A stretch of DNA of 64,000 nucleotides from Schmidtea polychroa (taxonomy: Eukaryota): contig CM097888.1 of the NCBI GenBank assembly GCA_044892525.1, positions 37,262,001-37,326,000 on the forward strand. The letters are read 5' to 3'. A program made the translations under genes and the position numbers. Below the pieces are notes generated by a model. That model was given only the letters and a program-made list of their open reading frames with translations, searched no databases and was not told the origin of the DNA. Positions 2,114 to 45,267 of this stretch are shown here, in pieces (the first letter of the stretch is position 1; each line of letters starts with the position of its first letter).

Positions 2114-2632
2114 TTAAATGAATTTTTCGATGAGCAGGTTCGACGGAAGAGGCGTCGCACTCGGCACATAGATAGGCGGAACGCTGGATGTCTGCATGGC
2201 GCTAGACAGAACCGGTTAATGGAGGGGCGGCAGTTGAGGCCCATGTCCTGCGCAACTGGTCAAGGCTCGTGATCCTACATCGATTTGATAGTGGATCGGG
2301 AACACGTTGGTCCTGTACTGAATCGGATATTCGCGAACTCGCTTTAAAATTTCGGCTTCAGTGTACACTTTGTGCAGTGCCTCTGATTGGGCTTTGATAG
2401 TTAGCCGCTGGCACCAAATTTCTTCCAGAAGACTGTCACGGCAGTGCTCCAATCTTAAGATCTTTGTTCGTTCTTCCTTCATTTGTGGCGGGGAGAACTG
2501 CGTGCCTTCATACGTATCGATACGTTTTTTGAGAGCCCCGATATAAGCGTGTAACTTCCTGATGTCTTCGTTCTTGTCAGCAGAAGAAAAGCAGGGTTGG
2601 AGTTCTTTAATGGAAGTGCTGGGTACTGACAT
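2114..2632 (-). pseudogene. Family F copy 1 (short variant; internal stop at 2216-2218)
   Basis: N-terminal ~115 aa align closely with ORF 38970-39731 (PCFSSADKN, YIGALKKRI, FSPPQMKEERTKILRLEHCRDSLLEE, QRLTIKAQSEALHKVY). Splice acceptor TTTTCCTTGTAG 2 nt before the ATG. Same frame continues past the stop (PVLS...) to TAA at 2114. Confidence 0.85.
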
Positions 2633-4165
2633 GCCTACAAGGAAAAGGAAAATTCTCGATCATCGTCGTTAATGGTCGTTCAGAAATACTAATGAAACCA
2701 AATAACACCACAAAATTACATAGGTGGTTTCGATTGTACCCGAAAAAGGATTATGAGTATCTTAGTAAGTCGCCATATCGTCATCACGTAAGGTCACTAT
2801 CACTACGGTCGGTTTCCTGCAAAACATTCCCGTACTCCAACAATCGGTCTGGAATTGAACTTTTATTCGGGATTATTGAGGGAAAATTACGACTCCTCAT
2901 CTGGTAGCACCCGTACCCAAAGTACCAGCGTTCGTTAAAAATGTTTCATCGACTATTCATCTTCCCTTTTGCTTTATCATCTCAATCATACTCATCCAGA
3001 AATCGTACTGAGGGTAACGAGATATATCATCATTCAGTAGTATAATATAACTTCCCCTTGACGACGGAGTAAAGGAGGGGTTGGGTGGGATTTGATCTTG
3101 ACAAATCGACAAAATCGACAACAAATAATAATTAATTTAATTATTTAGAATTTAAATTTCGTAATACTGTGGTGACTTTTCGTTGCGACACGAAAAAATG
3201 CTTATATTGCTATATTGTTGATTATATTGATATTCAGATTCACTGCAAAGTTCTTAAGTACGGTTAGTAATACTGACACGATACAGTTAGTGTTATTGGC
3301 GATTGAGTACATTCTATGGATCGTTAATTGTGTGACAGAAATACTAACAGCAACAGTGAAAACTAGGTCAATAATGGAATTTCTAATGTTTAGAATAAAT
3401 CTAGTTACAATAATAGGGATGATAGTTGCTAGGCCGGTGTTAACAATGATAATAAATGAAATAGTCCAATTAATAAGGAGGTTAACCGTTAATAATTAAA
3501 ATTGGAATAACCGAACCGTAATATTTCTAACAATGCTAACGCCAATGATTAGGTTAAAATCGATTATTATGACAACAAGCAGAATATCAACAATTAATAC
3601 ATGTAGTGGTATGGGTCATCCATGATTCCCACTCGGGACAGGCAGTTATCTACCGGCATTCATTTTCGTCTTTTTGTTACGGTAATGACTGAGGTCGTTG
3701 TTGCACTATAACGCTGACGAATTCTTGTCTGCAGTTGTCAATTTTCTCTTTATCTGACTGAATGTGTTTGCATGCCTCATATCCGGACAAGATAATGATT
3801 TCTATTTTTTAATTATTTTTGTTTTTCTTTTATTATTTATTTCGGTTTTTTCTAGTGGGTTTTCTTTGGTTTATTGTTATGTTGCTTAGATTCGGTTGGG
3901 GTTACCTTACTTATTTATTTTATTTTTATGTGGTTTCCTCTTTCATACCGGATTCAACTCCATCGAAATTTATCCCTTTGAAATTTAGCCGAACAGATTG
4001 ATACTACCTACATATCTCCGATAGGGAGTCGGAGCATTTGTGAGCCGGGTAATACATGATGTTGGTTACTTAGAGTAAATATTTATGAACTCAGTCTAAT
4101 CCCATAAGCTTCCTTCGCGATTTACGATTTGTCTCCAATATGTGTACCCAAGACGTCGTATCATG

Positions 4166-4308
4166 TTGGTGACGCGCACGCAGGTTGGAACTTACAAGCA
4201 GGTAAGCCCTAGTGTTAGGACTACTCGCTGTAAGATTCACGATACGGGTTCCTGATTGCCGATGGAATGACTTACATATCTTTCACTTTACTACATCCCT
4301 GATCCAAG
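4166..4308 (-). other. Conserved non-coding block downstream of family F (copy 2)
   Basis: Minus strand CTTGGATCAGG...GTAAGTC...GGCAATCAGGAACCCG...GAGTAGTCCTAA...GGGCTTACCTGC...TTCCAACC...CACCAA matches 17058-17191 and 39985-40131. Confidence 0.85.
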
Positions 4309-4560: not shown

Positions 4561-5336
4561 TTAGTTGACCTCCATATCTCCTTCGGTCAGCAGGGCATCT
4601 ATATCCACCTGCAGCCAACGATCTTCCTGGTGAGTCGATGCTACGGATGAGATGATTCGAAAGGTATTGAGTCGTGCGATTGATTGAGGATTGGTATTTG
4701 TCTTGGCAATATCCGAGTGGGCAGCGAACAATGAAGTCTCTAGTGCTTCCATCTCCTTTCGTCGTTTTAAAGTTCTCTCAACCCTCGATGGGCCTTCCAC
4801 TTCTTTGGATTCGGACTCGTTGACTTCCCGGAATGGCTTGGAGGAACGGTAGGAAACGATTAACGGAAAGTAGATTCGGAAGTGACGCCATCATTTTTTA
4901 CCCCTTTCAGAATGGGTTCTACGATAGGGGAAAGTTCCGGACCATGCCCTGCACAGCTTGATGACGCTGGGGCATTCAACTCGTCCGCTTGATGATGTTA
5001 GGGGAAAACGTTAAGTCCGTCCTTGATCGGGAATTCCCTGACTCTTCTCAGTATCTCTGATTCGGAGTATACGTGATGCAGGGTATCTGACTGGGCCTTG
5101 ATGGTCAATCGCTGGCAACGGCTTTCCTCCAGGAGACTGTCTCGGGAGTGCACCAGTCGCAAAACGTTCATTTTTTTTTCCTTCATTTGTTGCGGGGAGA
5201 ACCACGTATGTTCTAAAATTTCAATTCGCTTTTTGAAAGCCCCGATGTAGTCTTGTAGTTTTCGGTTGTCCGCGTTCTTGTCGGCACACGAAAAACAAGG
5301 TTTCGGGCTGTGTGGAGGCAAATTAGGCTCGGACAT
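4561..5336 (-). pseudogene. Family F copy 2 (full length; 2 stops and a frameshift)
   Basis: MSEPNLPPHSPKPCFSCADKN...; ORFs 4998-5360 and 4561-4800 match the N- and C-terminal parts of ORF 38970, ending LQVDIDALLTEGD. Confidence 0.9.
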
Positions 5337-8300
5337 GACAGAAAATGTTTTAAAACACAATTTATCAATCGTAAATGAAAACTTTCCTCAATACTACCAG
5401 ACTCATTCGTCGTTCACCTTGATTAGTCAGTCACGAAATCAATATCATCCTAACTCAAATATCAATATTCATATCACGTGCGTACAAAAACGAGGTCTGT
5501 CGTACATATTGAATTCATTACGGGTAGGATTCGATCAAATTATTAATAGGTTCATTTTTTAATGGTTCAATCTTAAATATTTAAATAATATCGAGGGGAG
5601 ATTTTAAGCCAAAATACTTCATGCTAACGATACTAGAATACTGGGTCTAAAATAATTTCTAGCAAACTTTGAGATTCGATGAAATATAGTATTCTAAAAT
5701 TTAAATAAAAATGTTACTAGTAAGAATATTAGCCCTATGTTTAAATTAAGTTTCGGGTTTGTGATACAGAAATTAGTATTATGTATTTCGTCATTATTAT
5801 GGTAGTTTAGGTTTTCATATTTACTTAGTGGTTGAAATGTTTAATTAATTGACGTTTTGTTTATTCTTTCATGGCAATGTTATAAATAATGTCTAAGACT
5901 TGCAAATCCGTTGCCCCACATTTTAGGGTTATCGTGTTTACGTTGACGTTAACAGAATCTGTTTTAGTTCATCCAGTTGGTAGTTTTATGTGTATACGAT
6001 CGTGATTATTTGGAAAATATTTAGTGTATACAATTCAGGAATTGATTTAAATGATTTTCGGAATGTTTACATGCGATTTCTACTTCACGTCACAATATTG
6101 TCTTTAGCGTGATGAGAGAAACTCGATCCATTGAGGTTACGTTTATATGTGATAATATGTCCGGATGTGGTCTGCCGAAAAGTTGATGTTGACTATGCGT
6201 TTAAAAATTTAATGAATTAGCAATTCTAGAGCTTTCAAGTTTTAGTGAATTTTTATTATTGGTACATCTTAACGGAAAAGCCGTGGATAGATTTACGTGA
6301 AAATGAAGACACTGAAGCCTTGGGAGTACCGAAACGACGAAATATCGGATTTATCAGTGATGTTGCCGGAGTTACAAAAATTAATTTAGATGATTCCTGT
6401 GTAAACTTGTTGAAGTTTCCAGTAGTCTTCCTGTCTTATAAGATTTCCGGATCGCTTTTCCATAGTGGCTTTAGAAGTTCCTGAATAGTTTTCGCTCTAA
6501 GTTTTAGAAGTTTGCTATGAGAATTAATGAGAAAATTTTTTTAGTTCTTAAATTTATAAAATTTAACCTGTCGAAAATTTTTTAGAAGTTTAGGGAATAA
6601 GCCAAGTGTCCGCCTTATATAGAATTTTTCGTCCAATCAGGACTTAGTTAGGGTGTATTTTTAATATTTTTCTTATGTCTTGTGCTTTTAACAGTTTTTC
6701 TTAAACTATTTAATCGTTTTAATTTGATTAATTTATCAAGTACTTTATTTTAAATGTTTTTCCTTATTTTTGTTCATTTCTATTGGAGATTCTGTTTGTA
6801 TTTCGTTATTTTTACTTTTATCTTTGTTTTTATTTATGGTTTTATGATAAATTTTTATTTTCTTGTTTGCATTTTTATTGTATTTGTATTTTGTATTTTA
6901 CTTTACAGAATTATTTTCTTCAGCTTGTTCGTTATGGTTGTGTATTTTTGTGATTTAATTGCTACTCTTCATGTTTTTGATGCTCTGATTTTAATTATTT
7001 TTTTATTCTGTTATTTTCTCCTTTTTTATTATTTATTTTTCTCACACTTGACTGATCCACTCCCTTTTTATTATACAGGATTTATTTTTAACTAAGATAT
7101 TTTAATGACCTGTCAAGATGATTTATTATTTTATTATTAACTTTCGTAACTCCCAGCCCAACAATGAGAACCCGATAGCATTTTCAAACCACCAGCAAGT
7201 AGAATGAATCGATAAAGAGAGAAAGTTCACCCGTTGAGACAAATGATCGCGTGTGACATTAGCTAGCTACTTAAGCTGATTTTCATTCTCATTTGAAGTT
7301 GCTACAAATGCAGTTGGCCTTATCGAAATTTTGGCGATATAAATGACATCAGTGCGCTGAGTTAGCAGATTAGAGTTGACTACTATCTAGACAAGCCAGA
7401 TAGTTCACGTTATCGTTCCATGTTAAAATCTATATCACTAATCATCGATGAACCTAAGATTGACGTTGTCTATGAGTATTCGCCTAAAGATTGGCATAAA
7501 TTATTAGAATTACGGCTAGTCGAAGCCACTATACTCATTTTATGTATTGATAAGAATTAGACTCGAAAACCTTAATTGCGTAATCACAGAATTTCGATAA
7601 AAATTAATGGTGCGCCTTCATTAACGTTGGCTTTTGAATTAGATTCCAAAAATAATTTTTGTGTGCGAAAAAATTTAAGTGAATAGAAGATAAAGTTCGA
7701 TTTCATTTTTTTTATAAAACCCATTCGTAGAATATTTGAAAGTAATAGATTGAATAATTATTCCTTGAGTTACGTAATTTTAAAAAACATTAAGAACATT
7801 TAATTTTGTCATTGATTATGGTTTGGAATATGGGAACCCACGAGTAACAGAAACAATGTGCAATTATAATTAGAGTATTTTGGAATAATTAGGTATGATA
7901 AACCGACTTTGTAATTTCACTACTTCGTCACTACAGAATGCCCCAAGTAAGGCCACTACGATTGGCATTTTTATCTTCTATCAAGGATAACAATCTTAGG
8001 TTAAATAAATAAATTAATGTTAATAATTCAACTATCGTTTTTGTTGTTATCTTTAACGGGCCTACGAGCTAACGTCATCGGCACTGATTGGAAAGAGAAT
8101 GCGAGGGATTTCTATGACCTCCATAAGCTTTTTGCCGGAACCTCCCAATCAACCTTGTTATAATAAGCGTGGAACTCGAACTGTCGATACACAATGAACG
8201 GGACTTCTGTAAAATTTTCTTCTCGTAAACCTGTTGTATTGTAGAGACCCATGAGGGTGCACCTATGTATTGCTTGTTTATTTATGCTATAATATCTATT

Positions 8301-8391
8301 CTCAAATAAATATTTTGTGTTACGTAAAGTTGTGATTTTGTTTCTAAGTTCCCGTAATAGAGTTGAATAAGGCAAGAGTGTTGTGTGGATT

Positions 8392-8934
8392 GTGGGAAAA
8401 ACAAACCTGTTAAAACATGAGATTGTTCTCACCAATACAAAACCTATAAAGTTGAAACCGTACCGCATTCCATTTAGTCTGAAGGAATCGGTAGACAAAC
8501 AGGTGAAACTGATGCTAAAACATGGGATAATCAGACATAGTAAATCACCATATCAATCACCAATGATAGTGGTGGCCAAGAAAGATGGATCAGTGCGATT
8601 GTGCAATGATTATCGCATGGTAGACGAGGCAACATGCAAGGATAGCCATCCATTGCCATTTCTAGATTATATTTATGGGCGCATGAGTAACGCTAAGTTT
8701 TTCTCATTAATGGACGCCTAAAAAGGATTTTATCAAATTAAGTTAAAAGATGAGACTATACCAATAACAGCATTTTCTACAAGCATGGGTCATTACGAAT
8801 ATAATGTAATGCCTTTAGGACTCACGGGAGCTCCAGCCAGATTTCAACGAGCAATGAATTTCAAAAGCAAAGGCAATAGAGAAACCGGTGAAAAAACATC
8901 ACCGAAGAAGCACAAGGACACCGATAGCCGTTGA
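8392..8934 (+). pseudogene. pol: Ty3/gypsy reverse transcriptase N-terminal fragment with internal deletion
   Basis: [70 protein letters not shown]. Homology stops near 8860, before the YxDD motif. Confidence 0.92.
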
Positions 8935-8966
8935 GATCACGTGGTGTTCCAAGATCAGTCACTCTT

Positions 8967-10102
8967 ATGGTAATAATAAATTGTATGTTGACGTTAGCCA
9001 TGGCCAAAAGGGATAAAAAAGCATATTTTCAGCCTGTGGCAATGCAAGTAGACTACTTAAATGGAATCCGTATATTTACAACGTGTGATAATGACACAAA
9101 ATTCAATCTACATTTTTACAATAAATAAGGGGTCCGCCCACTTAACTCACTAGAAAGAGAATGGGATTTATACGATTTAAAAGCCGGGACAGATTACAAA
9201 CTACACATCGCCGCATCAAGGTTATATCAGAGTGGTTGGCATTCTTACCAAGTATCAAATTGGATACTTGGGACGGCGGATTTCAAAAATCGCATATCGA
9301 AGTAAAGTTTAGTCGACAAATTCGTGGGGAGGAAAAGGTAAAGATTAATATTCTAGACGGACTAACCACGAGGGAACTGGTATGGTTAGATCATAACTCC
9401 CCTTCCAAAGAAATGTATGTAAATCAGTCCGTAGAACATTCGGTTCTAGTTATAAACTATAGTCCGAGAAAACGACAAAACGACAGGTGGTTCGAGGTAT
9501 TTGAAGAGATATTACCTCTTAGACATCCAGTTACAACAAAAATACCACAAAAAGTAATAAGGAAGAACATGGTGATACATCCAGTGAAATGGCAACATTT
9601 CAGACAATTACCACCTATCAAACAAATATCCTGCCAGACGACTCCAAATCTGACAAACTGTTGTGATTCCAATGCCCTCACAAACTTCAAAGCTGGATAC
9701 ATTCTGAAATTACCCATAGGGGTATGGATCACTGTATCGGCAGTATTATTATTAAGAACTACATTGATAGCTATGGGCATTTGGACCAACCTATATATTA
9801 AACATACAACGCAGTGCTGATGTCGCAATTTACGTGCTACTACCCTACTGAAGGAAAAGCTTATATATAAAAGCCTAAAAAAGCAGATAACCGATCAAAG
9901 TCGGAAAGGGCAACGGCACTGGTTCTACGGTCATTGCTCGGGCATACCCAACAAATTTAAATTCTACGAGGCCCAAAAACGTCAAATGATAATAACGAGA
10001 ATTCCGGGCCAGCACAATGCCATCATTAGGCTTACAGTTGTCATGCCCGAATTTGGCCGACATTGTGTAACTTATGTTCGGCTGATAACTGAATGGGATT
10101 AA
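8967..10102 (+). pseudogene. env-position ORF: signal peptide, FN3-like domain, TM helix, Cys cluster, cytoplasmic tail (~378 codons; 2 stops, 1 frameshift)
   Basis: MVIINCMLTLAMA leader. Reading through TAA 9126 gives EWDLYDLKAGTDYKLHIAASR (FN3 L-x-x-G-T-x-Y-like). After a frameshift near 9300: TM IGVWITVSAVLLLRTTLIAMGIW, then QC*C and 93 more open codons ending 5 bp before the TG at 10108. Confidence 0.7.
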
Positions 10103-10107
10103 AATCA

Positions 10108-11800
10108 TGTAAATAACTAAAATAAATATTAAAGATAAGGGAACAAATGGGGGAAATAGGAAACGGATAAGTTAAAATAAAATAACCGCGGAAAGTCTAA
10201 ATAAAAAATAAAATAATAAAAATAAAGAAAATTAACGTACTAATGACAAATCCGAAAATAAAAATAATAATTAATAAAAAATAAGAAAAATAAGAAAATA
10301 CGATAAAAATAGCCAAAAACCCTCAAAAGAAAAGAAAATAAGAATATTTAAAATTATTTATTAATAAAGTTACACAAAAGTAAAGAAAACATAAAAATAA
10401 TAAAAAAGAGAGGAAAAAGAATAAAATCATAATATTACAACTTACTGAATTCTGATTGGGCAGAATTTGGTATATAAGGGAACAGACTGACAAATTTTTC
10501 AGTTTCTAAAATCATCGTTAAGGTAAGGAGAAAATTAATTTTTCCAGTTTCTAAAATAATCCTTAAGGCACCACAGAACGTCAATCTACTAACTATACAT
10601 ACAGGATCCTAGGACTACTAACGAGACTTATATTCGTTATATTCAGTTCACATTCAGTTATAAACCCAGCGATTTCAACAAGTGCGTTCGCTTTTATTTT
10701 TTAAGTTTATTTAAGTTAAGTAATGTGTTTATTATATTGATAAATTTCAATTTAAAGAATTTCACAGTTCGTTGTTCTCATTTCTTTTGATTTTAGGTTT
10801 ATAATATTCATTTAGGTTATACTATGATTTTTATGCTCGTCGAAAGAATGTATATGAATGTTTTAGATCGATTGTTAATCACCTTTAGTCAATTTAGTTA
10901 CATTAATAAAAGGTTCGGTCGTATGGATTTGTTATTAAAATTTGTGTTCAATATACGCTGATTATGTAGATGGGGGGATCAACAGATGGGAACTCGGTCG
11001 ACACAGACAGAAGTATTTGGAGATTGGGAAAAAGCAAAGATTTTAGTCGGAGAAATTTGATGTCATTTTCTCGAGAATTGAATGTGCGATTGGGTTTGGA
11101 ATGGCAAGAGAAGGATCAATATCAGTTACTCGGAAATTATGAACTGAGGGAGTTGAGGGAAAAGTCGATGACCGAATAGTAGACAGGGTAAGGAGGTCGG
11201 AATGAAGGGGAAGTCAGGAAAAAAGGTCGGCATCAATGGGGAAGATAACACGATGAGGAAGAAATCGACGAGTCAGATGGAGATAAACAGGCCAGATTAG
11301 GGAAGATATGAAACGAGGAATAAAGTGCCCAATGGTGGGTTAGAGCTAGGCATCAGTAATTTTTCAGTTTAATTTTTCATATATTCAAAACTTCAATTCG
11401 TTATTTTGTTTACCTGTATTATTTACAGCGTAAATTTTTTTTTATAAATATATTTTTAACATTGCAGATTCATAATGTCTAATTACCGAACCAGCCAGCT
11501 CCGTCGGTGTTGGGTGAACTGTTAGAGCCGTGGGTTCACACTTCATCCTCACTTAGACTTAGTTGTCAGGTTCGGTATGGTCATCTATGACCTATCATTC
11601 TCATAATTTGAATTTTATGTTTTTCAGATTCATGAAGATTAACGTAATGAAGATGTCGGCTCACGAAATTTAGTGTACGGTGATCGACTTGTGCTATATT
11701 CTAGACCGGATTACTGGGTGAATATCCATGGACAGAAGAGAGAATTACCTATCGAGTTGGATTTTAATCTTATCATGATTTGCTTTTCAACTTGAGTTTT
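10108..11800 (+). mobile_element. Probable 3' LTR of the gypsy remnant (right end not determined)
   Basis: TGTAAATAAC start directly after the env-like ORF, A-rich tract, ATTGG 10455, TATATAAG 10471, TCAGTT 10499, donor AAG|GTAAGG 10523, purine-rich tract about 10970-11340. Confidence 0.6.
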
Positions 11801-13108
11801 TAAATAAAAATTTCAATAATTTTCGATTCTCATTAAAAAACTTTTTCCACATGGGATTTATATTACGAGTAATTCGATGAATTTTATGTCCAAAATTTTG
11901 TTGGAAACTTTTGTGTTATCAAATGCAAAACCCGGATGACATATATTAGCAAGTTGTTTGCGATTGGTAAAGGGTCAATATCAAAATCGATCTTTTCATA
12001 GTACTTCCTAGATTACCATTTTTTGATCAATTTGGTCATTTACCCATAATAGGCACTGTTTCCAGTTGTCAGGTGTGCTCGTTTTTCTCCGAGTAAAGGT
12101 TCATACCCGCTGGTGGTCATAGGTACAAGGATTCTTAAATCCTGCCAGTTCATTGAGTGGGTTGACAACTCTTAGTGTTTCTCGTCGGCAGTGGTGATTG
12201 GTCGGCAAGCGTCGGCATGCCAATTCAGTGATATGACGAAACTTGCATAATATCATGAGATTGATATGGATAGCTAAAAGGGGGGGGGTGTTACTAAGAA
12301 TAGATTTACTGAATTACTGCAACATCATTGGATGGATGTGGAATGGGGTTTCTAATATTAGTAACCGGGGGAATCCAAATAAATAAATTTGTTTGAAAAT
12401 TAATTAAATTCATATCAAGAGGATATATTAATTATTAGTAGAAAAATTAAGGGTCGTCCATTAAATGGAATAATAATGGTCATGATCAGAATAATGTAGC
12501 AATAATAACGACAATGACAATAATACTAAGTAATAATCATATTAATAATAACTCCATCGATAGTAATATGGTAGCAATAATAATAGAATTCGCATTAATG
12601 ATAATCGTAATAACAATGGTAATAATATCGCTAATAACAATTATAATGATAACAACGCTAATGGTAATAATAATAGGGAGAACAACAATAATCATAATAA
12701 TAATAAATGAAGATTTATATTTCCATAAGAGTACCTCATATAGACAGCTTGGGGGAGCGGGGTCCATTTATGTAAAATTATGAAATTATATTTAAAATGA
12801 TATAATTTAATGATATATGAATATGATGATTCATTACACCTAAATAATAATTAATGGTTGCCGGTCTTGAGGGGGGTAAAACGATAAGCTACATTTCTAA
12901 AAGTAATAAGTTGGATATATTTGAGGAAAATTCAAATTAGTACTGTCGGGTAACGACTATAGGATCTGAAGGGTGGCGTCTATAACAATTTTCTATTTAT
13001 CATATCACGACAAGTTAATTTAGTATACTAAAGTAACGGTTAATGACTATGATTTTGAGGGGTGTCATTTAGGAATTTTTAGAATTATGCTTTTAAAATC
13101 AAATATGA

Positions 13109-16034: not shown

Positions 16035-17324
16035 AGTCGAATGAATGCCGAATGTCAGTTATTTTTACCAGTATGATGGAGCTGTTTTTCTGAAGAGTTT
16101 TCCTTAGTTTTATAGAAAATGTCTGAACCAAATCTGCCAGTAACCGGCCTGAGACCGTAGTTCTCGTGCACGGATAAAAATTCGTTATTGAGGAAATCAG
16201 ACGATTATATCAGAACGTTGAAGAGAAAAATCGACACGTTGAAAGGCACCTGGTTCAATCCAGCGGCCATGAAAGAAGCCCAGACGAAAACTCTCAGGCT
16301 CGAGCACTGCCGTGACAGTTTGCTCGAGGAAAGCCGAAGTCAACGGCTTACGATTAAAGCTTAGTCGGCGGCTCTACACCGCATCTATTCCGACGCAGAG
16401 CTCAAGGCCAGAGTAGTTGAGTACCCCTCTGCATCATCGAACCGATCACGTGGGCCCATCCCACTCTTCACCTTGCCACTCTCATGGACCCACCGTAACA
16501 TCATCTGATCGTCCAGACATCTTAATGTCGGAAATTTACAAGTCCGCGACATCTAATATACCTCCAGAACTTACTTGGGTTCCCCGAGGAGACGTCCAAG
16601 CTGATCCCCCTACAGCAAAGAAGAAGCGGCTGACTCGCGCCGAGAAAACTAAAAAACGAAACGAAGAGCTCGCGGCAACTTCGGTTCAGTCGGTCATTCC
16701 GAAAGACGCGAATTCTGCAGTAAGAATCGTGCCAGCTACAATTTCTCAGACAGCTTCTGACCTGGCATTGGAAACCGACATCGCGGCTATGCTGTTGGAA
16801 GGAGATTGGTAACGGGCGGAGATCGTCAGCTAGCTTTATGTATCGGTACATTCGGCACTTCATGATAGTGGTAGACTCATTGAGCACAATAAAACTGTAT
16901 CTGTGTATAAAGTAGTCGTTTGCTGATTTTTGTAATTTCTACGCATGCTCGGCGAATAAATGTATTGCGAACGATGGGTTGTTGATTTATTAAATTTGCC
17001 TTATCTTATTGTTAAGACTCTGATGCGCTTGAGTAAACGGGAATGAGAAAAACCTCACTTGGACCAGACGGTTTGGGGAAAGCGTAAGTCCTTCTACGGC
17101 AGTCAGGAACCCGTACCGCGAATACTGGGGGAGTAGTCCTAACGCACGGGCTCATCTGCCCGCAGGTTCCGACCTCGGTGCACATCACCAAAATGGTTTA
17201 GTGTCATGTGTGCATCGGAGGGAATATCATTACCATCATCTTGGGTAACTAGGAAAATCGAGCTAGTCAAAATTCCACCAGTAGTCGTCCCATTCGTCAA
17301 CTATCCAACCCCAGGTACCCAACA
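16035..17324 (+). mobile_element. 5'-truncated giant LTR-like unit (3' end at 17324)
   Basis: Contains F copy 3, AATAAA near 16955 and conserved block 17058-17191; ends ACCCAACA at a distance from the block similar to the two TSD-bounded units. Left junction at the G11 run 16024-16034. Confidence 0.7.
16119..16812 (+). pseudogene. Family F copy 3 (stops and a frameshift)
   Basis: MSEPNLPVTGLRP*FSCTDKN...RLEHCRDSLLEESRSQRLTIKA*S...; C-terminus KKKRLTRAEKTKKR...RIVPA...ETDIAAMLLEGDW; acceptor TTTTATAG 3 nt before the ATG. Confidence 0.9.
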
Positions 17325-17359: not shown

Positions 17360-19490
17360 GTTACGGTTTTTGTTCCTGGCTCCACTAGTCCCATCTTGCT
17401 TCAAGAGCATACCTTCGAAATCGAAAATGGGGATGGAAAAAGAATATCTCTATTATGTGAAGGAATGGACACCATCATCGCAATGGAGATCCTAGAACCT
17501 GTTAGGGAATGAAAATGTCGTCTATATATAACATTCATAGCACCTGGGCAGAACTGACCCAAGATGTACAAAAACTAATGACCCTTTTCAATTTAGGAAA
17601 GGAATCGAAAGGGATAATAGCATGCTGGAATCGAATCCGGACGCGGCTGCGTCATCCAAATTCCAACACCGCGTTATACATCGAGAACGTGATCGGTAGA
17701 AAAACAAGGAGGGCCGATTACGGGCAATTACGCTGCTCACCACGGTCGGCCAAGATACCGGAATTTCTTACAAAACAAATAACAACATTGACTTTAAAAC
17801 GAAATCGATTAATGATGTCTATTATTATAAAAGGATACAGAGAGCGAATGTCGGGCGTGACACTGGATGGGGAGAGCCGGGGACCGGAAGATCTCAGAAG
17901 GTGACTCCTCAACTCTTTAGGCCTAACAGTGGCCACATGCCACACGCCGGAGGAGCTGCAAATGAACAACACGAGCGTACTGAGAGATCCGGAGGCCTCC
18001 TCAAGAGAGCAGATTGGCTATGATTCATATGATTTTCCATATATTTATGATAGAGGGGCTAACAATAAATTGCCCAATGACCACCGAAATAAAAATGGAA
18101 TTAGCCCGAGCAAGGATATTATTACTTATGGCTTTAATAAGCCAAATCGATATGAAAATCATTCTTCAGACTTGCCCATTGTTAATGGTGGAAGGATGCA
18201 TAATAAATCACCCAATGACCATGCAAATAAATATGGATATGATGATCCAATGAATGGAAATTATATTGCCAACAGAGGGATCCCTAACCTGAATGTGACA
18301 TCTGGCAATAAAATTCCTACATATAAAGAAAAACTCCTGAATAGAATGGAATTTAATATTCCAGAGGATAAAATCACTGAAAATGGCATTATGAAATTCA
18401 GTTTTCGAAACTATGATAATTGTAGAGATCAATATTCTAAAAATAATAAAAATTATTATTCCAAATACGATCACAGTTTTTTTTAGCGAAAATCACTTTA
18501 ATGCATTTAATAAAAATGGCCATAATAATTATATGCCAAAATTTGAAATTCCTAAAAATAATTATGAAAGTTTTAAACAAGAGGAATTTAATGTTAATGT
18601 TAATTATAATTATAATAATAAAAATACTAATTTTAGATATATAAACCCAAATAAAAGTAAAAATTTAACTAGATTTAATAATTATAAAAAATTTAGTAAT
18701 AATGAAAACATCGTCTCAGCGACCTATGATTGTACAATTAAAAACTTTTATAATGAAGGGTTGAGAATCTTCTCCCCTTATGCCTTAATTGGCCTGTATT
18801 GTTATACGATAAATAAAAATTTTCCTAACAAACGAGATAGTTCAACAAGCCAAATTGGACGTACAACGTCAACGATAATGATATTAAAACGTTCAAATCT
18901 TTAGTGAGACAACGTTTGGACCCCAGACAAGAAGATAACCTTACGATTTTCGTGGCAGCTCATTACGCTACGTTACGTCAATTCCTCAAACCAGCAATAG
19001 TGGCAATTTCTGTTTCGCATTTCAACGGAAATTTAATCCTAGAGTTAACACTAGAGTTAGCCCCTGATCACAGGTCAAACATTACCAATCGCATGCGCAT
19101 GGTATGACCGAAAGAGAAGTAGCCGGACAGTTTGACGGAGAAGATGGGGCGAAAGAATCAGGAAAATCTGCGATGGGAAAATCATCGTGGGATTGTTAAT
19201 GAAGGATTTATTGGAAGTGATTAAATTTCCAATGCAGCGCGCACTCGGAATTCGTGAGTTAGGCGCAGCCAAATGCCTCGAAAATAGGGACTTTACCGTT
19301 TACTGTCACAGGAAGAGGCGCATCATTTCTCTGACCTTCAAACAGAGAACGATGTTACGACTATTAAAGAAATATACGGCAATCTGCGAGACATCTGGCT
19401 TGATGATATTTAACCCGAAACCCGAAAAGATGTGCTTAATAAATAAAACAAACAGAAGCAGTAATCTCAGGCACGCAGAAAACCCTTAGC
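17360..19490 (+). pseudogene. Decayed gag-like plus Asn-rich retroelement coding region
   Basis: Fragmented frames: KRISLLCEGMDTIIAMEIL, TWAELTQDVQKLMTLFN, KGIIACWNRIR; Asn-rich ORFs 17929-18486 and 18413-18904. No diagnostic motif is intact. Confidence 0.35.
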
Positions 19491-20164: not shown

Positions 20165-20893
20165 AAATAATTTTTTCCAATACTAGCTATTTCATCTCTT
20201 ACCACCCGTTTTGAAACTTTGTCAAATTTCGAACAATGTTTTGGATTTCTATACAAATTTATTGATATGGAACATGAGGAAATAAAAAAAAGTTGTTTCG
20301 ATCTCCATAATAAATTTAAAGATGGTGAATCTTAAGATATCAGTGGCGTAGAGTTAATAGTTAAGAGTTAATTTCTCTAAAAATTATAATAAAAGACAGA
20401 AAGCAGCCCTAAGAACTCATAAAGTTTTTATACAAATACAACTTGGAGACTTCTTTTCCAAATGTCGCCACAAGTTTAAAACTGACAGTTCCAGTATCTG
20501 TTGCATCTGGAGAGCGAAGTTTTTCAAAATTAAAAATAATCAAAAACCACCTGAGAACTTCAATGACTCAAGAACGTCTCGGTAATATATCAATTATTGC
20601 AATTGAAAGTGAAATTGCTGATTCCTTAAATATTGAAGGGGCGATTGAAGAATTTGCCTTTAAAAAATCGCGTAGAGTAAATTTTTGATTGTAATATCAT
20701 AGATTTATAGATGTGCACAAAACTTATTAATGTTTTATATTCAATGGTAATATGTACATGTACATTAGATATATAAGTATAATAATAAACATTAAGAATG
20801 AAAATTTGATTTTTTTCTTTGATTTTGATGTTATCTCAAAGGGCGGCCATGCATACTAGCACGCAGGCGGCCATATACCCAGGCACGGCCCTG
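20165..20893 (+). mobile_element. hAT transposon 3' remnant (C-terminal dimerisation domain plus right TIR)
   Basis: TVPVSVASGERSFSKLKIIKNHLRTSMTQERL...EFAFKKSRR; terminus CGGCCCTG at 20886-20893. Confidence 0.9.
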
Positions 20894-24245: not shown

Positions 24246-24819
24246 CGGGAATGGATTAAATCCGCTAATTGAAGAATTTATTATAATTGATGCATTGCTA
24301 TAATTAATTTAATTAAAAAACATTATTATAATTTGTACTTGTTAAAATATGGCGATGCTTCTTTTATCAAAAAGAATGCTGATTTCAAATTCGTATGAAA
24401 TATCTACAAAATAAATCTAATAATAATGATTTATTTGTACTTTATCCCATGAATCTTCTGAGCATTCCAGAATTGGACCAAAATGAACATTTGTAGCTGC
24501 ATTCGATACGAGAACATCGATTCGACCGAAATTTTCAACTGTCTAAATAGGTCATAATAAATTACAATTTATAATAAATAACCTCGGAAATTAATTTCTT
24601 ACGAGCTTCAATTTCACCAACGTGACAAACGATACCTCGCAAATTATTTGGATTGCAATTTTGTTTCAGTTTCTCAACAGCATAATTGACATTTTTAGAT
24701 TTCCTACTACATATAACGACTTTTGAACCTTCTTTAAGAAATTTTTCAGCGATTGAATATCCAATACCATCAGTAGATCCGGTTACAATTGCTACTTTAT
24801 TAAGAAGTCTTTGCGCCAT
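24246..24819 (-). CDS. DHRS4: Dehydrogenase/reductase SDR family member 4-like, exons 1-4 (24583-24819, 24441-24542, 24339-24403, 24246-24297); remaining exons not found in the window
   Basis: [15 protein letters not shown](P)-binding motif, [46 protein letters not shown]; GT-AG introns of 40, 37 and 41 bp keep the frame open. Confidence 0.9.
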
Positions 24820-25084
24820 TTAAAAATATTCCAAATGTACATTATTTAAACACAGAATATCAAACAAAGAAAGGATTTTATATATAACTTTAATTTTTCA
24901 TTAATTAATTAATTAATAATGATTTGGTTTGCTTTAGTATTTTTAACGCGTGTGGTGTTTTTTATTTATTATTAGTTATGTAAAGTTGTTTGTTTTAATA
25001 ATATTCGTTTTAGCGTGTTTTTGAAAAACATATTTTAATTGCATTTATTGATTTTATGAATTTAGAAGTTCAAGACATCATAAC

Positions 25085-25095
25085 TGGCGACCACG
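25085..25095 (+). promoter_or_regulatory. Primer-binding site, probably tRNA-Arg
   Basis: TGGCGACCACG is complementary to a tRNA 3' end CGUGGUC-G-CCA, consistent with Arg(UCG) acceptor stems beginning GACCACG; shares its T with the LTR end. Confidence 0.65.
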
Positions 25096-25101
25096 ATTGA
25101 C

Positions 25102-27420
25102 ATGCTTTGGGACTCTGGAGCGTCAGTATCAGTTATGAGTGAAAAAAGTTGGACAAAGATCGGGAAACCGAGGTTAAAGCAGAGCACAATTTCTTTTTGT
25201 GGAGTATTTTCGACGGGAATGGAAAGACCGTTAGGAGAAATGACGATAGAAGCTGATTGGAATGGGAAAAAAAGAATTATTAATGTTATAGTTGTCAAAG
25301 ATATGCGTCCAGATTTCATTGGGGGTGTAGATACAATGGAGAGATTTGGTATTCGACTGGTAGAGGTGGACAATATTGAAGCGTCACAAGTAGGGAGGAC
25401 ATATGTGGACTCACAACGAGAAGAGAAAGCATTATTAATGCTTGGAGACAGGAAGAATGAACAGTTAGACATATTTCTACGGAAGTTCAAAGGTATTTTT
25501 ATGGCTTCAACCTTTGATCTCGGGTTTACGAAAGTTGTTCAACTTGAAATGAATATAGTAGGTGGGCCTGTAATGTTACAGCCAAGAAGACAACCAATGC
25601 ATTTAGAACAAAAGCTTGACGAACTTGTCACAAACTTATTAGAAGCGAGAGTTATTAGAAAATGCAAAAGTGCATGGAACGCACCACTAGTGATTGTGGC
25701 TAAGAAAGATGGATCAATAAGGATGTGTGTCGACTATATAGGGTTGAATGCGATCACGGAAAAGATATCTTTTCCAATGCCAGATACACGATTTCTACTG
25801 GATTGTCTGGCAGATTCAAAATATTTCACATCCATCGATCTAGGTCAAGCATATTATCAAGTTGGAATGGCGAAGGAAATTCAAGAGGTCACGGCTTTCA
25901 GTACAAGGGAAGGACAGTTTTGTTTTAACCGACTTCCTTTTGGACTAGCAACCGCCCCTGCGACGTTTCAAAGAATGAAGCACTCAATGTTGGATGGAAT
26001 ATTATTTAAGGGTGTTGTTGTCTACCTCGATGACATTCTTGTCTATGGAAAAGACAAAGAGGAACACAATAACAGATTAGAGGAAGTATTCAGAAGAATT
26101 CAACTAGCGGGGTTGAGAATTAACCCAGAAAAATGTAATCTGTATAAAGAAGAATTGACATTCCTAGGGCACACTGTAAGTGCAAGTGGGATAAAAACGA
26201 ACGACAAGAAGATTAAAGAGATTCAAGATGCAGAAATACCAGTATGCGCCAAACAATTAAGATCCTTTTTAGGTATGACCAATTACTATAGGAAGTTTAT
26301 AAAAAAAGAGAAAAAAGATGACTTGAATAAAAAAAAATTTCCTTTCAATTTGTATAACAACATAAAATTAGAAGATGGGTTTTTATTATTAGAGAAGAAT
26401 GGTAAAGATGTCATCCTGCTGCCGATAGACTAGTCAAATACGTTAGTTAAAGGAATACATACTGAAATGTGTCACATTGGAGTAAAGAAATTAATTAGCT
26501 ATATGAGCAACATATTTTTTTGGCCAAACATGCAAGAAACTATACAAAACTGTTTGATAGTATGTGAGATATGCTACAGAAGGAAGATAGTGCAGGAGAA
26601 GACAAAGGAACGATTGTTGCCGATAATAAGTTCAGAATTTTTAGAACAGTTGGTCATTGATATAGCACACATGAAGAATGGTGGAGTGTACAAGTATATG
26701 CTAGTTATCATTGATCGTTTTAGCAAAATGGTCAGTCTGACCGCACTGGAGAGACAAGACGAGAGATCGATTTTCAAAGCCATATTGGAGAAGTGGATAT
26801 ACCGTTTCGGAAAACCGCGAAATTGTCTGTCAGACAGAGGGAAGAACTTCGATAGTGGTTTTATGAAAACAAATCTAGGAAGACTGGGTATTAGGCAACA
26901 GTTCAGTTCACCATATCAGCATCAATCTAACGGTTTAGTTGAGAGAACAATACGGACAGTCAGAGACTTGCTGGCAACATCATTAGCAGGTGGACTAGGA
27001 GAGCGAAATTGGGTGGAGTTACTTCCTCGAGTAGAATTTTGTATCAACGTGACACAACAGAGCGCGACGGGATTTTCTCCATTTGAAATTGTTTTTGGGA
27101 GGAAGATTAACCTTCATTCAACATTGCCTCAGACGACATTGGATACAGTTGAGATACATAGATTGGTAAGAGAGAACAGTGAGAAAGCAGCTAAACGAAT
27201 GAAAGAGATGGAAACAGAGAAGAGAACGAATCGATGTTTCACGATGGGGGAGAAAGTATTAGTTCGGAAAGAACCACAAAATCGCGACAAAGATGGACTA
27301 CAGTATGAAGGTCCGTTTGTCATATCAAAGTTTTTGTCAGAACACCAGGTGGAATTGAGTGACGGGACGACAAAGAAACTCAGACGAATTGAGTGGCTTA
27401 AGAGATGGGCAGTTCCTTAA
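25102..27420 (+). pseudogene. pol: pol: protease (N-truncated), RT, [RNase H missing], integrase; one in-frame stop at 26431
   Basis: LWDSGA; KKDGSIRMCVDY; LPFGL; YLDD; FLGH; LRSFLGMTNYYRKFI; integrase H-H...C-C (IHTEMCHIG, CEIC) and DIAH / SDRG / VERTI. ORFs 25102 and 26467 are in the same frame. Confidence 0.95.
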
Positions 27421-27703
27421 AGAAGGGGAGAGTTATGTAAAGTTTTTTGTTTTAATAATATTCGTTTTAGCGTGTTTTTGAAAAACATATTTTAATTGCA
27501 TTTATTGATTTTATGAATTTAGAAGTTGAAGACATCATAACTTTATTAAATTCATTATTTTCATTTTATTGCATATGTTCAATATGTTGGAGAAACTTTT
27601 AAAATTAAAAAATAATCGTTTTGCTAATCCATTCATAGAAATACAACCTTCAATAATATGTTTAAGATAATTTACACCCTTTTGACGAGAATGACATACA
27701 ATT

Positions 27704-36900: not shown

Positions 36901-39900
36901 TCCATTGTTATATTTGGTCGCATCAAAATTTCCAATAGCTGCGGAGACGATTTAGAATTCGAAAAAGAGACAATTCGTATTTGAGACTCATGTTTACGTT
37001 AGTGCTGATTAGGGAAAATCTACATAGATAGAGGAATACTTTCTTGATCATCAGCTTGTCGATCAGAGTGATTTGGAATAGGACCTTGTCGATCACAACG
37101 CACGAATAAATCCAATGAATTTCTGCAATATACTGCCTTTTGAAACGTCATCCGATTTAGATCGCCAGAGCATTAGCGCCAAAATCCATTTACGATGTAC
37201 TTTTAGTCTACAATATTGACTTTCGAGTGGCTGATAAGCACCGTCTTCTGAAAATTAAAGTAAATAACCAATGAGAAATTATCAGAAATCTTACGATAGA
37301 GATGAGAGAAATTACTGACAGAATTATCGGTTAAGCTTGTATTGACTGGAGGAATCACTGTGAGGGTTATCTGCTAATTGACAAATGAATTGCAGTCAGA
37401 TTATAACCAACATAATTTGACGATCGACGAAACCAGATAGAGTTGATAACCGGTTAACTTCCAAAATGATTTGTTTAAGCGGCGCGGGGGTAGACGTTGT
37501 CTTGAGTTGGCCGTTTGATAAGCGAATTAGATTATGATTCCCAGCTCATTTCACCATTTACCGAATTGCCACACGCGATCTAAGGCAGATGCTCATACAT
37601 CTACACCTAACCGCGAAATATAACATTATCTATAATCTAAAAAAAAAATCAATAAATATATATTATAGGAACACACAAACTTACCTGTGTGTAGAAATTT
37701 AATGCCGCGAAATTTATCAATATTATAAATGCTGACTAACAGTAATATTTAAGAACTTGAATAATGATCTCATAATTATATAAAATCAAAATTCAAGTCC
37801 TAAAAATTACTTCAATGCAAAAACTTACCTTTAAACGATTTTTGGAAAATTGAATAAATGAAATTAAGTTAACATTGTCATATAATTGGTGACTCACCTC
37901 AGGTGGTGTGCACACCAACTTATATTATAGACAATGTTAACTTTCGCGGTTAGGTGTAGTATCAATTCACATCGACCGTGTGGTACACGCATACCTTCGC
38001 ACACTCTCCTTACAGTAGGATACACCAAACACCACTGAGATGCATTTCCTATAATATAACAAAAAAATCAATAATCTTACATTATAGAAACATACATACT
38101 TACTTTGATTTCACGTTGATGTTCTCATTTATAGCTCAACGTATCTCAGTGGTGTTTGGTGTAGCAAAATACTTTAAATAGTAGAGTTTTCGACGACGTC
38201 ATAATTACATAATAGTCTACGATTCACGATTTCATGAGATAGTAGGATGGTGTGTATAAGTAGTAGGACAGATCGCTTTATTAACGACGTAATACGACAT
38301 CGGACTGTATAGCCTATTAGGGAGAACGACAACACATGCAGACACAAGCCTACACTAATCTAACCGAACATACCAACTCGCTTAAGGCAAATTGAATATA
38401 ACACAAGCACACGAGTGGGCGTCGTCATGACGACGAGTGCAGCGCGTTTTATAAAAATTCATAATTTAATTTCTAAAGCATTATTATATATTATATATAA
38501 TATATAATATAATATGATTCGAATATTTTTCAACCTGCATTGCAATTAACATCGTACAAATAATTATAAATTACACTAAATTTCGACCACCAGACATGCA
38601 CAACTCAACAAAACCACAATACTAGGCATTAGCGCTTTAATTGATTTTCGGAACATAACAACGTTAGCAGATAATCAAAAAGAGTAATAATGGAGAGGAC
38701 TGTCTAACCTGAAAGTAAATGTTGATTTTTAGGTCGAGTAAATTGAATTTAATATTTCCCCGTTTTCTTTTCTAAATTATTATTAGTAGATAATTTGATT
38801 TGAACGTTTAGTAACGGAATGAATGTGAAGTGCTGAGATATAGGAAAGAGTGGTTTGAGGGTTGCATAAAGTGGTATGATGAATGAGATCGTTAAGCCTG
38901 GGGGTTAAATCGTAAATGATACGCAAATGAGTGTTGCGACTGCTTCTGAATATATTAATAAATTTCTAGATGACTACACCATCCAACAAGGCTAAAGAAC
39001 TCGGCCCGTGTTTTTCTTGTGCCGACAAGAACGCGGATATCGCTCAACTTCACATATATATCGGGGCTCTAAAGAAGCGCATAAACCTTCATGAAGGCAC
39101 GTGGTTCTCGCCGCCACAAATGAAGGAGGAAAGGACTAAGATCCTCAGATTAGAGCACTGTAGAAACAGCCTGCTGGAAGAGAGCCGCTGTCAAAGGCTC
39201 ACAATAAAGGCACAGTCAGAAGCCCTCCATAAGGTCTATACGGAGGCAGAACTAGCCAAGCGAGTGCGCGAATTTCCCGTCGTGGATGGAACAAACGTGT
39301 TCCCTCTCCACCATCAGTCGTCTACATCGTCTACCACAAGTTGTCAAGGGCACGGCTCCCATCGGCCGCCCACCCCAGCCCCAGTACTGTCGGGATATTT
39401 ACCCATGAAAGGTGGCCTGTCTGACCCAATTCTGGCCCCAATTCTCGTGGCACCTTCTGTCACCACGGCGGTAGGAGAAAATCCGCCATCCCGCAAACGC
39501 AAGCATCCAACTAGGGCCGAGAAGAATAGAAAACGCCGGAATGCAATGAAGGCACGCGAAACGTCATTATCAGCGGCACACTTGAAAATTAAGGAAATAT
39601 CAACAACTCACTCAATCCCCTCAAAAGAAGTTTTCCGCATTGTTCCAGCCAGCGGTATCAAATTCATATCCGACTGCCGATTACCTGTTGACATCGACGA
39701 GATGATCGCCGAAGGGGACAACTTCGTCTAGACCGGATTCCTATTGAGCTCGATGTTTGCTTCGAGCCGTAAATGAACTTGAAGACTTTGTCGAATGTCG
39801 TATCCTACTGGTTCATATGCTGTTGATCTAATAATTGGGATGATGTATTGTTTTATTTTTGTTTCAGTGTCAATACATTTTTCTGTTTGGTTATTATTTT

Positions 39901-43042: not shown

Positions 43043-45267
43043 AAGGTATTCCCCGACTTACGACCGAGATAGGTTCCTGATCATCGGTCGTAAGTCGAAT
43101 TTCATAGAAAAAAATTAAGAAAAAAATTACATACTGTACTACTAACTTTGAGGGTCAGGAGAAATGAAACTCCCAAAAATTCATATAATTCAAACTTTAT
43201 TTAAAATAATATTAATAACACAAAAATATATATTGAATTAAAAACAACACATTAATGTATAATAAAACAAAAATACATAATAAAAAATATATATAATTAA
43301 ACAAAAATATATTATTTAAATTAGAGTTATTTAAATGTCTTCATCATCCGTACTTATTACAAGAGTGCAATCCATTGCGTTGTCTTCAGAAACATAATGT
43401 CCAGTGCTGGTTTTCTTAAAAAATTTGTCTAAAGTCGTCTGAACAGTTTGAGCTTTCATTTCCCGGTAAATTTCATGATAACAAGTCAAATTTTCCTGAA
43501 TCAGCCTATTTATTTCTGAGAATCGCTCTTCATTTGCATCCATTTGTTGTAATTTTAGCATTCCCTTATTAATTTGGTGAAAAGCAGCACTCATTTCTTT
43601 TGTTGAGAATTTTTTTTTGTGGACTTTCTTCTTCATCTGATTTGCTTTTATCTTCGTTTTCTGTAACACATTGTGCCTCAAATTCCAATAAATCTTCATT
43701 CGTTAGGTCATCCAATTGGTGTGCAATGAGTTGGTTAATATCTTCACTGACAACTTCAAGATTAAGCTGCCGACCAAGATCTACGATCTGATCTGTAATT
43801 TCCTCAATGTCAACTTCTTTTTCAATCGATGAACTTGTACATTCTTCAAATCTTTTTGTTAATTTTTCCATATTCCGCTCATACAAGAAGGCTTGACTTC
43901 TTTCCATCCACTTGCTATGTTTTTAATTCCATGAAGAATATTATACTTTGACCAAAATTCTTTTAAAGTAATCCCCTCTTCAAGAGCCATAATTGCTTGA
44001 ATAAATGTAATTTTTAAATAATAGGCCTTAAATGTAGCTATAGTACTCTGATCCATGGACTGCAAAACACTCGTAGTATTTGGAGGCAGATACATAATTT
44101 GAATGTTCGGGTGTAAGTCGCATAGGTGTGGTGGATGTCTAGGTGCATTATCCAGTATTAAAAGTATTTTAAAAGGAATATTCTCCTGATTACAATATTC
44201 TTTTACTTCGGGCGCAAATACTTTCATAAACCAGTCTTCAAAAAGTAATCGTGTCATCCAAGTATTTTTATTTGAGTTGTAATGCATTGGTAACATATTA
44301 ATATTTACTCCTTTAAATGCTCTTGGATTTTTCGAGCGATGTATTACAAAAGGTTTCAATTTATAACTATCAATATTTCCGCCTAATAAAACTTTTATTC
44401 GGTCCTTAAAAACCTTGAACCCTGGCATACTTTTTTCCTCCTTATGAATATACGTACGTTCAGGTATCTTCTTCCAATATAGACCAGTCTCATATAAATT
44501 AAATATTTATTCCTTTGTATAATAGTTTTCTTTTAGAAACTCGTCGAATTTAACTCCAAATTCCTCAGCAGCTTTATAATCAGCACTAACTGCCTCTCCA
44601 CCAATTTTTACATTTTGAAAATTAGTTCTCTTCCTATATCTTTGAAACCAACCATGGCTTGCAGTAAAAGCCTGATCATAGTTTTTACCGTCCTTCAATT
44701 TTAACATATTGAAAAGACTACATGCTTTGGTTTGGATAATTGCGAGACTTAGAGGAATTCGTTTTTAAATCAAATCCTCCATCCAAATCACTAATAGTTT
44801 TTCCATATCATGTATGGAACCTTGTCTATTTTTGGTTATTATTGTAAATTTCATAGATGTCGATTCTTTTACAGCTTCCAAAATTCGTTTTTATCCTTTA
44901 AAATCGTCAATATTGTCGAATGGGACAGTTTAAGATCATGTGCTATATCTTTCACTTTTTTATCACTTTCAAATTGTAATATTATTTTATGTTTGGTTTC
45001 CAAGTCTATAACACTTTTATTTTTACTAGTTTTACTAGTTCCAGCCATTTTTGGGATGATATAAAAATTTTTTTATAATAAAATTATTCACTTAAAAAAT
45101 TGACTTAGCTAATGTAATGTATTATTTGTACTTAAATATGTATGTAAATCGGTTTTTTTACTTTGTTTTTTTTTAAATTTTCTCATATATTATGAAAAAA
45201 ATTGGAAAAAAATGGTCGCAAGTGCGAATAGTCGTAAGTCGAACGGTCGTAAGTCGGGGACTACCTG
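43043..45267 (-). mobile_element. Tigger/pogo (TIGD1-like) DNA transposon, full length, decayed transposase about 45048-43331
   Basis: TIRs (C/A)AGGTA(G/T)TCCCCGACTTACGACC with TA TSD; psq-HTH start, FTASHGWFQRY, FNLYETGLYWKK, LLILDNAPRHP, YLPPNTTSVLQSMDQ. Confidence 0.95.

Follow-up and report, generated by a model that had tools for sequence, protein, structure and literature searches.

Our analysis of the window, the whole 64-kb stretch of DNA examined here (about 30% GC), supports an intron-less gene for a type I membrane protein lying between a gypsy-type reverse transcriptase (RT) fragment and an LTR-like promoter. The RT fragment, the ORF and the LTR-like block are colinear on one strand and are separated by gaps of about 100 and 5-45 bases, respectively (Table 1).

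Table 1. Features of the locus, with window coordinates and the basis of each assignment
Feature	Positions	Strand	Basis
N-terminal half of Ty3/gypsy-type RT, internal stop 8719-8721, ending before the catalytic DD motif	8371..8859	+	Pfam RVT_1, pol profile
Junction: probable deletion breakpoint and short basic stretch, possibly the extreme 3' end of pol	8860..8966	+	translations
Putative signal peptide, short hydrophobic leader ending A-M-A	8967..9005	+	KD 9-mer 2.33, translation
First ectodomain, candidate FN3-like beta-sandwich, broken by stop 9126-9128, one N-glycosylation sequon	9006..9290	+	Pfam fn3, PDB sequence match
Beta-rich ectodomain segment 2, downstream of the frame switch, with two sequons	9290..9520	+	five short strands, pLDDT <50
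Stalk rich in Pro/Thr/Ser, C-x8-CC cluster, one sequon	9518..9697	+	composition/translation
Single transmembrane (TM) helix	9698..9811	+	KD 19-mer 1.96; AlphaFold helix
Juxtamembrane Cys pair around stop 9818-9820, then basic cytoplasmic tail, 93 open codons	9812..10102	+	stop count
LTR-like block: A-rich U3-like tract, reverse CCAAT 10452, TATA 10471, AATAAA 10905	10108..10985	+	motif scan, similarity

The ORF at 8967-10102 is a former protein-coding gene that is now decayed. It starts with an ATG at 8967, meets its first in-frame stop at 9126-9128 and stays open beyond that stop up to 9305; the same frame is also open for about 14 codons upstream of the ATG. From 9146, another frame runs open up to the stop at 9818-9820 and then has no further stop between 9821 and 10102; a single switch between the two falls somewhere within about 9245-9302, where both frames are open and no exact site can be fixed. 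The best one-switch path has 378 codons and 2 stops. When the sequence was shuffled with its dinucleotides preserved (n = 300; both strands and all frame pairs permitted), the best one-switch path contained at least 5 stops (range 5-17, mode 13), and two or fewer occurred in 0/300. Each of the two pieces has one stop in its frame versus 4-11 and 9-28 across the other five frames, and the tail frame has none versus 3-9. These results bear out an earlier sequence-only reading of this DNA, which had described a frame of about 378 codons with two stops and one frameshift and had located the segment EWDLYDLKAGTDYKLHIAASR behind the stop at 9126; this segment indeed follows directly past the stop in the same frame. 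Introns are not required, since the frame is continuous from the leader through the domains, the TM helix and the tail. No host-gene-type introns were found between these parts. Near the start there is a single donor-acceptor pair (8983-9032), and its use would rule out an open exon upstream, as three stops lie just ahead of it in the needed frame.

The encoded protein has a type I membrane topology, running from a leader through a beta-rich ectodomain and a stalk to a single TM helix and, last, a basic tail. It starts with MV, and the hydrophobic leader proposed earlier stands in part: its 9-mer is hydrophobic (KD 2.33), but it is short, at 13 residues, and its 19-mer value is just 0.55. The ectodomain measures about 230 residues, with 4 Cys after the leader, and all four N-glycosylation sequons are on its side of the membrane. 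Its first domain (about 95 residues) has an alternating beta pattern, its second segment (about 75 residues) was assigned to no family by Pfam, NCBIfam, PDB or ESM Atlas, and 14 of the 60 stalk residues are Pro, Thr or Ser. The single TM helix was confirmed by its KD 19-mer of 1.96 and by AlphaFold, which placed a helix at residues 143-174 of the modelled piece, within the sole confident part of the model (block pLDDT 73-90). The predicted juxtamembrane QC*C cluster was found as two Cys flanking the second stop, and the predicted basic tail of about 100 residues has 100, with 19 K/R versus 6 D/E. For the tail, no known domain, family or look-alike was found by Pfam, NCBIfam, ESM Atlas or PDB sequence search; it was also rejected as a relative of the repeated ORF family of the window (see below), whose profile it did not match. 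For 9290-9817, the PDB sequence search gave nothing and ESM Atlas gave only matches under 0.9.

The first domain is probably FN3-like, judging by its sequence. The fn3 family was its only Pfam match (E = 0.046-0.05, residues 44-83), with 14.2-14.4 bits, which does not reach the PF00041 gathering cut-off of 25 bits. Its only match in the PDB sequence search was the FN3 scaffold Centyrin S17 (E = 0.14), and the Pfam and PDB matches are not independent. An equally good PDB match of the tail, to plectin (E = 0.1), was evidently due to chance, and plectin was rejected as a relative. The motif that had been read as L-x-P-G-T-x-Y is in fact L-K-A-G-T-D-Y; it aligns with LKPGTEY of Centyrin, with Ala replacing the Pro. 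FN3 strand B typically carries a Trp, which was not seen in the first domain. As controls, 140 of 168 eligible stop-poor windows of the same length were drawn randomly, and 10 were removed because they lay in frame on pol, RT, transposase or host exons that were already known. None of the remaining 130 matched fn3, and 20 of them matched some family at E <= 0.05 (14/124 without 6 judged to be real genes). Since 14/124 non-genic controls reach this level for some family, the fn3 score alone is at noise level. FN3 is favoured because the protein is recognisable as a membrane protein on other grounds and the match sits on its first ectodomain, where this family would be expected. Animal type I proteins commonly begin with an FN3 domain, a fold unrelated to FN2.

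Single-sequence AlphaFold modelling of the first domain gave an all-beta model with four strands (pLDDT 42.5), and the model of the downstream piece (pLDDT 48.0) had five short strands below 50 before the TM helix. Structure prediction, proposed earlier as a check, recovered the TM helix but formed no sandwich. Foldseek found no match to either model at E <= 0.001 in PDB or BFVD, and this result is uninformative because the input models are too poor. The claimed FN3 domain is plausible, with fn3 as the sole Pfam match, but it remains below threshold and the predicted fold is not confirmatory. A second FN3-like motif, spotted by eye near 8100, had no statistical support.

Upstream of the ORF, the RT fragment was recognised by Pfam RVT_1 (E = 1.9e-13), and a pol profile matched just 8395-8859 in this region. 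Its sequence places it in the gypsy type: the nearest database proteins are 39-45% identical, and those with full domain lists have the PR-RT-RNase H-IN order. No protease, RNase H, integrase or gag was found near the fragment by tblastn with 7 pol relatives or by the pol profile, and neither a 5' LTR nor a target-site duplication for this element was found in the 64-kb window. The missing RNase H and integrase downstream of RT are consistent with a deletion. In the junction, the RT frame is open to a stop at 8932-8934, and another frame is open from 8858 to 9016, overlapping the ORF start. The junction (8860-8966) matched neither the pol relatives nor NCBIfam; it contains an RRSTR stretch that may resemble integrase C-termini. 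The ORF had been said to come directly after the pol remnant, which does not hold in the sense of after integrase, as only the RT half at 8395-8859 matches pol. Because RNase H and integrase are absent and the region is one of nested fragments, the env position of the ORF is deduced from order and spacing. Farther upstream of RT is a stop-poor stretch (7250-8340, +) with a leader-like hydrophobic segment near 8015. A protease-like pattern spotted by eye near 7600 had no statistical support from Pfam or the pol profile.

The block downstream of the ORF starts at 10108 or 10148 and ends near 10985, both bounds being uncertain. The motif pair CTGATTGG-N(8-24)-TATATAA has 3 matches in the window versus 0.03 expected, and the block has 61-67% AT-rich similarity to four dispersed blocks in the window. 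The excess of the motif pair and the presence of similar blocks at four other places mark it as an LTR-type promoter that is repeated. A search of the 64 kb for a close second copy that would form a partner LTR to 10108-10985 found none. The TG at 10108 is five bases beyond the final stop and the longest purine run before it is 4; the TG at 10148 is preceded by an interrupted purine stretch (13/15), and the control run at the 3' LTR of a young element (27431) is 14. The LTR-like TG that had been noted 5 bp after the ORF is thus present at 10108 with a promoter block behind it, but it lacks a purine tract and a partner LTR. Related blocks at 6615 (-) and 36063 (+) each lie 1.3-2.9 kb ahead of a repeated ORF, so 10108-10985 may have served as 5' LTR to an element lying farther downstream. 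At 12280-12300 (+), 1.3 kb downstream, a G-run purine tract followed by TGTTAC forms a typical 3' LTR start of another element.

Several other elements were observed in the window. The repeated ORF, of about 250 aa, occurs in four diverged copies at 2216-2659 (-), 4561-5340 (-), 16119-16812 (+) and 38970-39728 (+). It is intact at 38970 and has a Cys pair, a helical N-half and a basic NLS-like stretch; the family had no Pfam or NCBIfam match and probably belongs to large LTR elements as an accessory ORF. About 300 bases past it is a conserved non-coding block of approximately 130-160 nt with apparent hairpins (4143-4275 (-), 17081-17239 (+) and 40022-40179 (+)), which had no Rfam match and could be an LTR end with a primer-binding region, or a structured RNA. 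Asn-rich, gag-like broken frames without a family match are located downstream of the repeated ORF at 17506-19107 (+). The young gypsy element at 24974-27542 (+) is 2.6 kb long, with 112-bp LTRs that are 98% identical, AGTTA...TAACT ends, a TTATT duplication, a purine tract and a TGG primer site; it codes for protease-RT-integrase, apparently without gag, RNase H or a third ORF. Adjoining this insertion is a short-chain dehydrogenase exon at 24580-24816 (-) (adh_short, E = 9e-12). Host exons at 55369-55746 and 63374-64000 (+) gave ubiquitin-like and ankyrin matches, presumably reflecting an ANKUB1-like architecture. DNA-transposon relics at 20329-20649 (+), 43334-44608 (-), 47379-48645 (+) and 51753-52073 (+) are fragments of hAT dimerisation, DDE_1 and DUF4371-type transposases. 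In addition, a mir-753 precursor-like hairpin at 37746-37806 (-) (Rfam E = 7e-12, 61.8 bits versus a gathering score of 62; weak bantam overlap) sits between 40-nt inverted-repeat arms at 37601-37640 and 37920-37959. Together with the GC content of about 30%, this hairpin makes a planarian the probable host; mir-753 would be a planarian family, although the literature searched did not bear this out.

The composition of the ORF was compared with that of other coding sequences in the window. Its plus-strand A skew is 0.14-0.19 versus 0.16-0.17 for RT and the other pol of the window, and its GC3 is 0.36-0.44, compared with 0.35-0.39 for RT, pol and gag-like frames, 0.53 for the repeated ORF and 0.19-0.30 for six host or host-like exons. 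In codon usage, the two main pieces scored +0.13 and +0.16 bits per codon, RT +0.13 and the tail just +0.03; among the controls, 5/6 host exons were negative, and 1/4 retroelement and 1/6 host sequences were misclassified. Since off-frame readings were also positive (up to +0.13) and 2/10 controls were misclassified, the codon test is confounded by composition. Base and codon usage together make it mildly more likely that the ORF resided in a retroelement for a long time than that it was captured recently. Homologue searches yielded 0/343 candidates for the downstream piece at near lengths and 0/29 for the first piece at longer lengths. The downstream region gave one match among 1.84 billion representative proteins, which was spurious; P0001 was rejected as a homologue, being a tandem-repeat protein with a score summed over nine weak repeats. 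ESM Atlas contained no match to the tail, and no second copy of the membrane-protein ORF was found elsewhere in the 64-kb window.

The features of known envelope classes were also looked for in the protein. With regard to F-type env, there is no R-x-[KR]-R furin site, the only ectodomain R-x-x-R precedes charged residues, the single long hydrophobic segment leaves no fusion peptide, and Pfam gave no env family match. An ectodomain of about 230 residues with 4 Cys, in an ORF downstream of RT, lacks the hallmarks of HSV/gB-type env, which are a large ectodomain bridged by cysteines and, in flatworms, the gag-env-pol order, and 378 codons with an MV start do not agree with sORF2/FAST-like proteins. 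A TM segment followed by a polybasic region is present as in the latter, and this is a generic feature of type I proteins. The suggestion that the protein is not a viral-type fusogen is therefore upheld, as hallmarks of the F-type, gB-type and FAST-like classes were absent in every feature tested.

A survey covering 1,512 Ty3/gypsy elements with an env gene divided env into two viral fusogen classes, one F-type and the other HSV/gB-type, and flatworm elements had only gB-type env in the gag-env-pol order (PMC13524379). The search used known env baits and so need not have reported this type of ORF; the word fibronectin is absent from the main text (PMC13524379). As described there, errantiviruses resemble the present locus in having a gypsy-type RT and a downstream ORF with a leader, an ectodomain and a C-terminal TM anchor, but this ORF lacks F or gB features, is shorter and has a long basic tail; in flatworm gB-type elements env lies between gag and pol, whereas this ORF is downstream of RT (PMC13524379). 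Bdelloid rotifer LTR elements carry diverse ORF3 (TM/Cys ORFs, GDSL, DEDDy). These are likewise non-viral third ORFs and include 210-230 aa TM proteins of unknown origin, but they differ in size and topology, and fibronectin is not mentioned in the available text, the comparison being one of descriptions only (PMC5408684). The sORF2 proteins of the MDG1 group are, in the available text, 63-107 aa long (FAST 80-200), with an ectodomain of about 30 residues, an N-terminal MG and N-myristoylation (PMC11952523). Like this locus, they combine a single TM and an adjoining basic region within an LTR element that has no env, and some copies are downstream of pol, as here after RT; in contrast to their 63-107 aa, the present ORF has about 378 codons, a leader and two predicted folded domains (PMC11952523). 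Planarian Burro giant gypsy elements have the same probable host group, captured host-like domains and accessory ORFs, but their env homology is in a frame between gag and pol, and the domains listed in the available text are BIR, BCL2, MATH and ankyrin, with no mention of FN3 (PMC6431247). The planarian nidovirus PSCNV, as its available description states, is also a planarian parasite with extracellular-matrix-type modules (FN2), proposed as a transmission aid, but the modules are FN2 rather than FN3 and it is an RNA virus, not a retroelement (PMC6211748).

Taken together, our results suggest, with a probability of roughly 45%, that the ORF is what remains of the third ORF in a Ty3/gypsy element that underwent an internal deletion, in an AT-rich animal genome that is probably planarian, and that its product was a surface protein resembling adhesion molecules or receptors and not a fusogen. 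Membership of the ORF in a gypsy element is in itself likely, and given this membership and an FN3-like domain, an adhesion or decoy function rather than fusion is quite likely. A deletion would have taken pol from mid-RT to its 3' end and left, in order, the RT half, the pol tail, ORF3 and the 3' LTR; an internal part of pol is missing from the window's second gypsy element as well, whose match to the pol profile contains no RNase H. The leader would direct the protein into the ER, and the glycosylated surface ectodomain would consist of two beta-sandwich domains, the first of them FN3-like, carried by a stalk. The juxtamembrane Cys, possibly lipid-modified, and the basic tail would anchor the protein at the membrane and could bind capsids. 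The protein may have served in attachment or adhesion, docking cells or particles to cells, or as a receptor decoy, and would not be a stand-alone fusogen. The earlier proposal of a captured or novel surface protein acting as env or receptor mimic is supported as regards the type I surface-protein anatomy, but nothing observed points positively to env; the anatomy is more in keeping with adhesion at the surface or action as a decoy than with serving as env.

Chance juxtaposition is a somewhat unlikely alternative. The ORF would then derive from another mobile element, for instance an integrated virus or a giant element of the Burro type in which it was an accessory ORF. The RT would be a separate relic, and the promoter block would serve as 5' LTR to an element farther downstream comprising the repeated ORF at 16119 and the gag-like frames from 17506. 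The first 41 kb are a mosaic of nested fragments, 8860-8966 is not bridged by pol homology, the blocks at 6615 (-) and 36063 (+) precede the repeated ORF, and planarian giant elements are described in the available text as holding many captured domains and accessory ORFs (PMC6431247), all of which would suit such an origin. However, it requires two tight same-strand junctions to arise by chance, and it is at odds with the continuous composition from RT into the ORF, with the lack of homology between the DNA downstream of the 10108-10985 block and that downstream of the other blocks, and with the 13/15 purine stretch ahead of the TG at 10148. It is also unlikely that the ORF is the element's ORF3 with an FN3 call due to a chance motif, the ectodomain having another beta-rich fold. 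The score of 14.4 versus 25 bits, the change of the motif Pro to Ala, the absent strand-B Trp and the failure of the AlphaFold models to form a sandwich would agree with this, but the fn3 match covers 40 residues over three predicted strands, 0/130 controls matched fn3, and FN3 is generally common as the first domain of such animal proteins.

A rather improbable origin is that a rapidly evolving receptor of the host (cytokine-receptor-like or an adhesion molecule) was retrocopied, or its mRNA captured, on a single occasion, and that this copy recombined into gypsy RNA and has been dead since, the ORF never having been a functional part of an element family. The receptor-like architecture without introns and the single copy within the window are in line with this origin, and a template switch from RT into foreign RNA might explain why RT ends half-way. 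On the other hand, base and codon usage resemble those of retroelement ORFs and not host exons (a weak to moderate argument), no poly(A) follows the final stop, and no host homologue was found in the protein sets searched, whose planarian coverage is uncertain. Least probable is a true env of a new type that itself drives particle-cell or cell-cell fusion. Provided that the element forms a single unit, the ORF would sit where env canonically lies; the protein has a leader, sequons, a TM helix, juxtamembrane Cys and a basic patch, and its C-x8-CC cluster before the TM presumably bears a loose likeness to retroviral TM motifs. Small TM proteins with polybasic tails are tied to Drosophila retrotransposon transfer in the available text of PMC11952523. 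Against this, the protein has no R-x-[KR]-R, no fusion-peptide-like hydrophobic segment and no predicted long ectodomain helix, its ectodomain of about 230 residues matched no env family, and it is far longer than sORF2/FAST-like proteins, with no MG start.

The preferred reading of a decayed third ORF thus describes the locus as an orphan receptor-like pseudogene in a plausible ORF3 position and not a known env, its FN3 domain and element membership being probable. No literature report of an FN3 ORF3 in an LTR element was found, and planarian genome annotation, Repbase or survey supplements may already list the family. It is conceivable, though rather doubtful, that a flatworm Ty3/gypsy family employs, as its equivalent of an envelope, a surface protein that is receptor-like and of FN3/Ig type, which would add a third type to F and gB, one that docks capsid-laden cells or vesicles on targets such as stem cells and spreads the element without a viral fusogen. 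If this is true, a host-receptor-like FN3 protein at the env position would be a different solution, namely attachment, cell-cell transfer or an immune decoy. Planarian elements need pluripotent stem cells for inheritance, so the attachment and transfer idea would be testable there.
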